DNA of 11,128 nt from Candidatus Saccharimonadota bacterium (lineage in GTDB: Bacteria > Pseudomonadota > Gammaproteobacteria > Enterobacterales > Enterobacteriaceae): the NCBI RefSeq assembly GCF_012571345.1, contig NZ_CP046218.1, positions 337,515 to 348,642 on the forward strand, given 5' to 3'. Within the stretch, counting starts at the first letter, position 1. Each line of letters begins with the position of its first letter. The notes beneath the pieces are model-generated. The model did no database searches. It saw nothing but the letters and a program-made list of their open reading frames with translations, and had not been told where the DNA came from. Positions 10,119 through 10,795 of the stretch are shown here, piece after piece. Made by a program: the position numbers and the translations under genes.

Positions 10119-10795
10119 CTATATAATAGACTTGATAAACCAATTTATAGGAATAATATTACGAGATTTTAGATAGTCATTTGCACGAGAAAAATGTTTA
10201 CATCTATCAAATCCCTTATAAAAAGAAAATGGTGAAGGATGTGAAGTACATAATATGTGATGTTTGTTTTTATCAATGAAAACATTTTTCTTTTGTGCTT
10301 TTTGCCCCCACAAAAGAAAGACTATATTAGTACAGTATTTATTAATTACTTTAATAACATTATTTGTAAAAATTTCCCAACCAATATTAGCATGTGAATT
10401 TGGACGATTTTTTTCTACTGTTAGTATAGTGTTTAATAACATTACACCTTGTTTTACCCAATCTATTAAATAACCATGATTAGGTATATAAAATTTTGGT
10501 ATATCATATTTTATAGCTTTATAAATATTTTTTAATGTAGGCGGAATTTTAGTTTTAGGCATAACAGAAAAAGCCAAACCATTTGCTTGATTAGTACCAT
10601 GATAAGGATCTTGACCTAAAATCACTATTTTTAATTGATATAAATGTATTATATTAAATATACTGAAAATATATTTTTTAGGCGGATAAATAGTTTTGCC
10701 CTGAAAAATATCTTCATTAATTTTATGAATAATTTTTATAAAATAATCTTTTTTTTTTCTTTATGTAAAAAATGTTGCCAATTATTTTTTATCAT
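10119..10795 (-). pseudogene. ung: uracil-DNA glycosylase, split by a frameshift inside an A10 tract (apparent pseudogene, slippage-rescued gene, or homopolymer sequencing error)
   Basis: The 5' piece starts at the ATG at 10795..10793 and reads [16 protein letters not shown] (vs E. coli MANELTWHDVLAEEKQQ). It then runs into TAA at 10738..10736. The other frame is open from 10760 down to the TAA at 10121..10119. It reads (R)[54 protein letters not shown]..., matching E. coli [51 protein letters not shown].... The catalytic motifs GQDPYH, LLNT.LTV and HPSP.S are intact. The M of the 168-aa track ORF is really an internal GTG (Val). Adding one A to the tract yields a contiguous ~225-aa Ung (E. 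coli 229 aa). Confidence 0.9.
10749..10758 (-). repeat. A10 homopolymer on the ung coding strand; site of the frameshift and of an in-phase A_AAA_AAG heptamer
   Basis: The plus strand reads c-tttttttttt-c, counted directly as 10 T. In my scan for runs, every other homopolymer I found was 9 nt or shorter. In the 5' reading frame the codons are GAA AAA AAA AAG ATT, so A AAA AAG (10754..10748) sits in X_XXY_YYZ phase. Confidence 0.9.

Follow-up and report, generated by a model that had tools for sequence, protein, structure and literature searches.

A shared single-nucleotide deletion in a poly(A) tract of ung in two Macroplea symbionts, and its possible bridging during expression

The divided frame of ung

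The stretch of DNA considered here, called the window, comprises 11,128 nucleotides (nt) with a GC content of 25.9%. It belongs to the 467,736 bp chromosome of 'Ca. Macropleicola muticae', the Enterobacteriaceae symbiont that lives in the reed beetle Macroplea mutica, an origin established through the joined Ung protein (see below) and Asd, which is encoded next to it. The order of genes on its minus strand is ung, asd, fkpA, tusDCB, rpsL, rpsG, fusA, tuf, secE, nusG, rplK, while rpsF is on the plus strand and divergent from ung. The gene at issue is ung, the product of which has the features of a family-1 uracil-DNA glycosylase. Within a poly(A) tract of lysine codons near its start there is a genuine deletion of 1 nt, and the two parts of the gene lie in different frames. 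The relevant features, with frame 0 being that of the original ATG, are as follows.

10748..10795, minus strand: 5′ segment of ung in frame 0, the ATG (10795-10793) plus 15 codons
10749..10758, minus strand: A10 homopolymer (T10 on the plus strand), where 1 nt was deleted and where slippage is proposed
10748..10754, minus strand: A_AAA_AAG heptamer in frame-0 phase, by direct reading; the frame-0 codons are GAA AAA AAA AAG
10736..10738, minus strand: TAA ending the unshifted frame-0 product of 19 codons; it overlaps the ATA at 10739-10737 that is the GenBank start
10761..10763, minus strand: TAA closing the −1 frame upstream, the 5′ limit of the 22-nt switch interval
10119..10748, minus strand: 3′ segment of ung in the −1 frame, 209 codons plus TAG (10121-10119), from D17 to I225
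10599..10616, minus strand: GQDPYH with the catalytic Asp, codons 61-66, invariant in 21 of 21 aligned Ung sequences
10623..10625, minus strand: GTG, the earliest canonical start of the −1 frame, which would yield 168 amino acids
10805..10809, minus strand: AAAGG, weakly Shine-Dalgarno-like, 9 nt (10804-10796) upstream of the original ATG

The −1 frame is open from 10760 to the TAG at 10121-10119, and from the GAT at 10748 it reads DYFIKII. Given the stops at 10763-10761 and 10738-10736, the switch of frame is confined to 10739-10760, and the A10 run fills 10 of these 22 nt. No other homopolymer of the window is as long; the runner-up is a T9 at 6538-6546, which on the minus strand is an in-frame A9 of tusB. 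An A10 tract is by itself unremarkable, since about 0.85 A/T runs of at least 10 are expected per 11 kb at the composition of the window (calculated from base counts). The frame would be restored by one additional A (A11) or by the loss of two (A8) in the RNA, or by a −1 ribosomal shift. The A11 mRNA and the −1 shift yield the identical protein.

When the two segments are joined in this way, the resulting protein of 225 amino acids scores 305.4 bits on NF003589, the NCBIfam ung equivalog model (cutoff 223), 261.8 bits on TIGR00628 (cutoff 185.75) and 69.8 on Pfam PF03167 (cutoff 24.3). Over residues 5-220 it is colinear with residues 6-221 of E. coli Ung, gapless across the junction (E = 1e-73), and has GQDPYH at 61-66, LLNTILTV at 120-127 and HPSPFS at 186-191. 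It thus passes the model cutoffs and has the catalytic motifs of the family-1 enzymes, and what it lacks is a single uninterrupted reading frame: the switch falls at A10 and the frame-0 stop comes after 19 codons. Judged by its sequence, the Macroplea symbiont gene is a Ung orthologue by descent. An earlier sequence-only reading of this DNA had placed the frameshift inside A10, the longest homopolymer, had held that an extra A or a −1 shift restores colinear Ung, and had described the downstream frame as free of stops and in possession of the catalytic motifs. All three observations are borne out: by the two frames with their stops and the single gap against orthologues described below, by the gapless match to E. 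coli Ung and an orthologue with A11, and by the 209 open codons with their three motifs.

Both sides of the junction belong to well-conserved parts of the protein. In 90% or more of the Ung sequences aligned, W6, E13, Y18 and F19 are kept. In an AlphaFold2 model of the joined protein, with a mean predicted local distance difference test score (pLDDT) of 76.5 and a predicted template-modelling score of 0.79, the junction sits between helices 6-14 and 17-31, where the block-mean pLDDT is 92 (residues 11-20) and 90 (residues 21-30). A search of the joined protein against a collection of genome contigs gave matches to metagenome-assembled genomes of unrelated Bacilli and Clostridia only, and none to a reed-beetle symbiont.

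The HPSPFS motif (10224-10241, minus strand) has Phe at the intercalating position in both Macroplea symbionts. We take this position to be that of the DNA-intercalating Leu of E. coli HPSPLS. In the alignment of Donaciinae symbionts, the HPSPxS position varies among Leu, Phe and Tyr.

The deletion in relatives and the constraint downstream of it

Aligned with five in-frame orthologues, the nucleotide sequence has exactly one 1-nt gap, and it is within the A tract. The symbiont of Donacia clavipes has GAA AAA AAA AAA GAT TAC TTT (A11, EKKKDYF), which is the sequence predicted for the repaired gene. The tract is A12 in D. tomentosa and A13 in D. thalassina, both in frame, and is interrupted by C in Neohaemonia and Plateumaris. 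All 24 of the other sequenced Donaciinae symbionts have a full-length Ung of 223-230 amino acids; only the two Macroplea entries are truncated. The second of these is from the symbiont of M. appendiculata (CP046220.1), where the ung locus was found through the neighbouring Asd protein. In its G-A10-G and in the layout of its frames it agrees with that of M. mutica (ATG TTA AAA GAT AGT TGG ... GAA AAA AAA AAG ATT ATT TTA TAA). Most likely the deletion goes back to an ancestor shared by the two Macroplea symbionts. The diversification of the Donaciinae has been put at 75-100 million years (Reis et al. 2020).

The intact ung genes of Donacia and Plateumaris relatives (retrieved loci L005 1501-2184, L006 1501-2181, L007 1501-2178 and L008 1501-2184) carry several in-frame A9-A13 tracts, those of D. 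thalassina being A13, A11, A11 and A9, and those of D. clavipes A11, A10, A9, A9 and A9. Macroplea ung has no run of at least 8 besides A10, and its GC content is 24% versus 17-18% in Donacia and Plateumaris ung.

The sequence-only reading had named an error of assembly as an alternative, namely that the true tract is A11 or A8 and the gene plainly intact. Homopolymer indels are typical of early PacBio reads, and A10 is close to the length at which Illumina indel errors climb. The M. mutica chromosome was assembled with Canu from early PacBio reads with a mean of 2.3 kb, but the assembly was corrected with 30.8 million MiSeq reads. That of M. appendiculata comes from separate NextSeq reads and a de novo SPAdes assembly, in which the M. 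mutica genome served only for contig ordering and for resolving the rRNA operons (Reis et al. 2020). Moreover, in other species the same pipeline reports in-frame tracts of A11, A12 and A13 here, along with several further in-frame A9-A11 tracts elsewhere in ung. No independent assembly of either Macroplea symbiont, from Logan or otherwise, was among the Ung or Asd matches. Two assemblies on different platforms nevertheless agree, and the identical A10 in the independently assembled, Illumina-only M. appendiculata genome makes a homopolymer assembly error unlikely; that the gene is plainly intact is very improbable.

The comparison of the two species also permits an assessment of selection. 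Over the 209 downstream codons they differ at 45 of 630 nt, with 20 synonymous (Sd) and 24 nonsynonymous (Nd) differences. The ratio of nonsynonymous to synonymous divergence (dN/dS) is 0.27, which is below 1 (Fisher p = 4e-5), at a dS of 0.19 between the species. The values of neighbouring genes span it (asd 0.20, tusC 0.28, tusB 0.36, secE 0.44, fkpA 0.49). The segment has no stop codon in either symbiont, and in neutral simulations with an equal number of substitutions the frame stays open in only 4%. Amino-acid changes number 23 against 35 expected, and none of 20,000 neutral simulations gave so few. Ten intergenic spacers of the same region have 9.8% mismatches and 12 indel events per 985 aligned nt, a rate at which about 8 indels are expected in the 678 nt of ung; there are no further ones (P ~3e-4). 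Tajima relative-rate tests of Macroplea against the intact Neohaemonia Ung detected no acceleration (18 versus 18 and 15 versus 17 unique changes). The downstream frame of ung is still under purifying selection, and the marks of a decaying pseudogene, such as relaxed dN/dS, extra lesions and loss in relatives, were not found.

The sequence-only reading had considered the gene to be either freshly inactivated or still expressed, and had proposed an alignment of orthologues with their dN/dS as a check. That comparison, with A10 conserved in M. appendiculata, no extra lesion, no acceleration and a ratio well away from ~1, favours continued function and not fresh inactivation. The earlier observation is thereby confirmed, and its interpretation partly supported.

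The constraint could still derive from, or be carried by, an in-frame state if the gene were an early-stage pseudogene or a toggling locus, in which A11 gave rise to A10 by independent recent deletions, or in which A10 and A11 alleles coexist in a polyploid population. Homopolymers are the commonest sites of inactivating indels in AT-rich symbionts (PMC3017870; PMC5574713), and the lesion is present in two taxa only. Yet a single shared event is more parsimonious than two identical and very recent ones, each met with before a second lesion had arisen, and the flanking 65 nt are identical in both species. In favour of such an explanation are also the retention of A10 where reversion is easy, as would suit a frame under weak selection or none, the empty ung column of a fourth species in a published orthogroup table (PMC12508126) and the want of a WP_ accession for M. 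mutica. A divergence of dS 0.19 has, however, been accompanied by no stops, no indels and the low dN/dS; ung is kept in 24 of 24 other symbionts, and the Macroplea branch is not accelerated. An explanation by recent decay or toggling is unlikely.

Start site and passage across the tract

Most plausibly, functional Ung starts at the original ATG and reads across the tract. Both Macroplea species keep this ATG and codons 6-16, W6 and E13 among them, with identical nucleotides; the rpsF-ung spacer adjoining the conserved start is 17% divergent and has a 20-nt indel. Although the surrounding spacer has diverged to this extent, AAAGG is kept in M. appendiculata, and it may be the Shine-Dalgarno-like sequence of ung. 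The GTG at 10625 of M. mutica is GTT in M. appendiculata, and the first canonical −1-frame start of the latter leads to a product of 147 amino acids without GQDPYH. The conserved 5′ codons, the want of a suitable canonical −1-frame start in M. appendiculata and the confident helices flanking the junction all point to the original ATG.

Database annotation has it otherwise. The GenBank entries, from RAST annotation, give 206 amino acids from the ATA start in both Macroplea symbionts (QJC31350.1, QJC30937.1/WP_168920662.1), whereas the later RefSeq entry for M. appendiculata, WP_246209060.1, gives 191 from an ATT start. For the M. mutica protein a GenBank accession only, with no WP_ accession, was seen, so there is apparently no RefSeq Ung protein for M. 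mutica. The orthogroup table of a 2025 expression study has ung rows for three species and an empty column for the fourth; the 12 RNA-sequencing (RNA-seq) libraries of M. mutica symbionts in that study were counted on annotated coding-sequence features only (PMC12508126).

Taken at face value, the annotations would mean an N-terminally truncated Ung made from a non-canonical −1-frame start, the ATA at 10739-10737 (206 amino acids) or the ATT (191 amino acids). The overlap of the frame-0 TAA (10738-10736) with the ATA resembles that of coupled genes and raises the possibility of termination-reinitiation, and such a product would account for the downstream constraint. But ATA and ATT are very poor initiators, and that the annotated starts differ by pipeline points to heuristics. 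The truncated product would be without helix 6-14 and without some or all of helix 17-31, together with W6, E13, Y18 and F19, whereas alignments to Ung family models, and to the structures from E. coli and V. cholerae, begin at residue 5 or 6. Furthermore, the full conservation of codons 6-16 would be needless for a mere leader reading frame. Use of these starts is improbable, with only a slim chance of being correct.

The frame-0 codons place A_AAA_AAG in the phase in which the identical heptamer serves for −1 frameshifting in E. coli dnaX, as the sequence-only reading had pointed out, and −1 is the direction needed. The presence of the heptamer in phase stands, but its use as additional evidence does not. 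Deletion of one A from GAA-AAA-AAA-AAA-G automatically puts the heptamer in phase and makes a −1 correction necessary, and a phase and direction forced by the deletion are no independent evidence. E. coli dnaX has an upstream Shine-Dalgarno-like element and a downstream stem-loop as stimulators, and neither is found at Macroplea ung. The 20 nt upstream of the heptamer (CAACAUUUUUUACAUAAAGA) contain no Shine-Dalgarno-like or GGAGG-like sequence. Folding of the 60 nt downstream gave −3.1 kcal/mol in M. mutica, which is at the level of shuffled sequences (z = 0.02), and 0 kcal/mol in M. appendiculata, in accord with the earlier statement that no convincing stimulatory stem-loop is present. There is no structure at 5-9 nt downstream. 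A distal hairpin at 10664-10716 (minus strand), 32 nt downstream of the heptamer, has −12.3 kcal/mol (z = −2.5) in M. mutica. In M. appendiculata it is −4.2 kcal/mol (z = 0.43); it is not conserved, and with this weakening it is probably fortuitous. The identity block of 65 nt around the tract was also considered as a conserved recoding signal and was set aside, there being by inspection an identical run of ~93 nt in the catalytic core.

These features bear on whether programmed, dnaX-like −1 frameshifting on A_AAA_AAG is the main route, with the mRNA remaining A10. In its favour are, besides the phase and direction, the complete tusBCD set that is retained in the window (tusDCB at 6401-7503). 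The products of tusBCD have roles in 2-thiolation of U34 in tRNA-Lys, and this modification could affect frame maintenance at AAA/AAG runs. E. coli ribosomes slide along consecutive AAA codons (PMC4363877), and correction of the chloroplast atpB frameshift occurs without detectable slippage in the transcript (PMC8254509). However, the phase is automatic, structure within 60 nt and an upstream Shine-Dalgarno are lacking, the distal hairpin is unconserved, and the heptamer's final G is accounted for by the codon of Asp17, GAT, which is also present in D. clavipes. As the main route, programmed shifting is quite unlikely.

The dnaX shift also differs in what it is for: it lets an intact gene yield a further functional product that is shorter, and the ung shift would repair a mutation. 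The dnaX genes of these beetle symbionts (retrieved loci L003 6601-7728 and L004 414-1514, with cut copies ending L005, 1-51, and L006, 1-6) encode only 366-378 amino acids, comprising the ATPase, lid and gamma3 domains, which is a gamma-length product. The tau-specific C-terminal part known from E. coli dnaX has no counterpart in symbiont dnaX.

The reading preferred here, to which we give a probability of roughly 60%, is that ung carries a shared, leaky frameshift, that it still functions, and that the frameshift is bridged at the tract, chiefly through slippage in transcription. In some expression events the frameshift would be crossed there, with full-length Ung as the product. The main route would be reiterative slippage of RNA polymerase on the T10 template, with one additional A in the mRNA (A11), and unstimulated −1 slippage or sliding of ribosomes on A_AAA_AAG inside A10 may contribute. 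Output of Ung would be reduced but not zero. Reduced Ung is seemingly tolerated, and a near-neutral leaky state plausible, given that intact orthologues already have A11-A13 at the same site. The locus presents what is typical of poly(A) rescue: a single indel in a coding run of at least ~9, an otherwise intact gene, conservation across two taxa and purifying selection.

Single-nucleotide insertions are the dominant RNA polymerase error at A/T runs and increase exponentially as runs get longer; in Buchnera, 151 of 157 transcript insertions were in homopolymers and 80% were of a single nucleotide (PMC5574713). For the poly(A) frameshifts of Buchnera and Blochmannia, corrected transcripts are reported to amount to 12-50% (PMC5009743), and in Blochmannia such frameshifts conserved between species have been described (PMC3017870). 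These are the closest known cases to that of Macroplea (Tamas et al. 2008, Wernegreen et al. 2010, as recounted in PMC3017870 and PMC5009743). The cases have in common an AT-rich obligate insect endosymbiont, a single-base indel in a coding A tract of at least 10 with the rest of the gene intact, a frameshift common to species, no sign of relaxed selection, and the need for one additional A, the most frequent outcome of slippage, as the correction. Macroplea differs in that the host of its Enterobacteriaceae symbiont is a Donaciinae leaf beetle and in that the gene is ung, which acts in base-excision repair and is unmentioned in the Blochmannia paper (PMC3017870). Moreover, transcript heterogeneity and full-length protein were measured in Buchnera and Blochmannia and are predictions for Macroplea.

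Two systems from outside insects are also instructive. The chloroplast atpB of Oenothera and tobacco resembles ung in having an A11-type tract of lysine codons in an endosymbiont-derived genome; there is partial correction to full-length protein, for which the homopolymeric run is essential (PMC8254509). It differs from ung in being a laboratory or spontaneous mutant, as opposed to a state conserved in evolution, for which ribosomal recoding is favoured and a downstream stem-loop is predicted (PMC8254509). In tssM of Citrobacter rodentium, transcriptional frameshifting rescues a prematurely interrupted gene, with two length variants as products, according to the title of that report (PMC4256274); the organism, a pathogen, is free-living.

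Several points weigh against a still-functioning gene rescued mainly in transcription. Parallel recent deletions at the same hotspot are possible, the lesion being known in only two taxa, and so is A10/A11 polymorphism in the polyploid symbiont population. If the deletions were independent and recent, dN/dS would reflect mostly the time before the frameshift. For codons 17-57 alone, the ratio is 0.62 (p = 0.62), at low power. In the CirSeq study, no reading frame was restored in Buchnera (PMC5574713). The atpB oligo(A) frameshift was ascribed to translational recoding with no detectable transcript slippage (PMC8254509), and on that case either the transcriptional or the translational route may take the larger share. 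Finally, reversion of A10 to A11 at so mutable a tract would be expected to be frequent and favoured if the output of Ung mattered, yet both lineages have A10.

The persistence of A10 is likely to mean that the leaky state is nearly neutral; that it is a favoured state is less likely. A stronger version of the latter has A10 selected as a fixed throttle of Ung via slippage, or has the tract supporting an unusually efficient, stimulator-free −1 shift. On either, persistence in two lineages despite easy reversion would be a signature of selection, and full Ung activity may possibly do harm where much deoxyuridine monophosphate is incorporated into a genome of ~25% GC. We consider this version decidedly unlikely. 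The sequence-only reading had suggested that partial loss of uracil excision would raise C-to-T pressure. This finds no support in the local composition, as the GC content and the GC at third codon positions of Macroplea ung and asd are equal to or above those of relatives with intact ung, which is a weak test with two genes.

Neighbouring genes and significance

Scanning of the window for promoters and terminators gave 17 sites versus 14.6 expected, which is the background level, and no terminators; Rfam and tRNA scans of the window had no matches. The spacer between asd and fkpA (8741-8860, 120 nt) has 4 differences (3.3%) and no indels between the two Macroplea symbionts, in contrast to the spacers beside ung and tusD, which are 15-20% divergent with indels. 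It may be a candidate for a constrained promoter or leader element.

The adjacent fkpA (7583-8740 in the window, minus strand; 11243-12415 and 5123-6298 in retrieved loci L003 and L004) encodes 385-391 amino acids in the symbionts of Macroplea and Neohaemonia versus 280-281 in those of Donacia. The extra length is a polar segment of ~100 amino acids behind the signal peptide, and the FKBP model covers residues 129-354 only. FkpA also has a His/Lys-rich C-terminal tail, and its dN/dS of 0.49 is the highest of the region. In the symbiont of Plateumaris pusilla, a PLD-like gene of 173 amino acids (PF13091) is located between ung and asd (locus L007, 2191-2712, minus strand); it is not at the ung-asd position in the Macroplea, Neohaemonia and Donacia loci examined.

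In the searchable literature, including that on ung frameshifts in endosymbionts, no earlier report of the Macroplea or Donaciinae symbiont ung frameshift was found. A practical consequence of the divided frame is the inconsistency of ung annotations, with 206 amino acids from ATA, 191 from ATT and apparently no RefSeq protein for M. mutica. Public genomic reads, together with the 12 RNA-seq libraries of M. mutica symbiotic organs, make rescue readily testable. If rescue is confirmed, conserved leaky poly(A) frameshifting would extend from the symbionts of aphids and ants to an independent lineage of beetle symbionts, and the phenomenon would reach a DNA-repair gene, the dosage of which is relevant to mutational bias.

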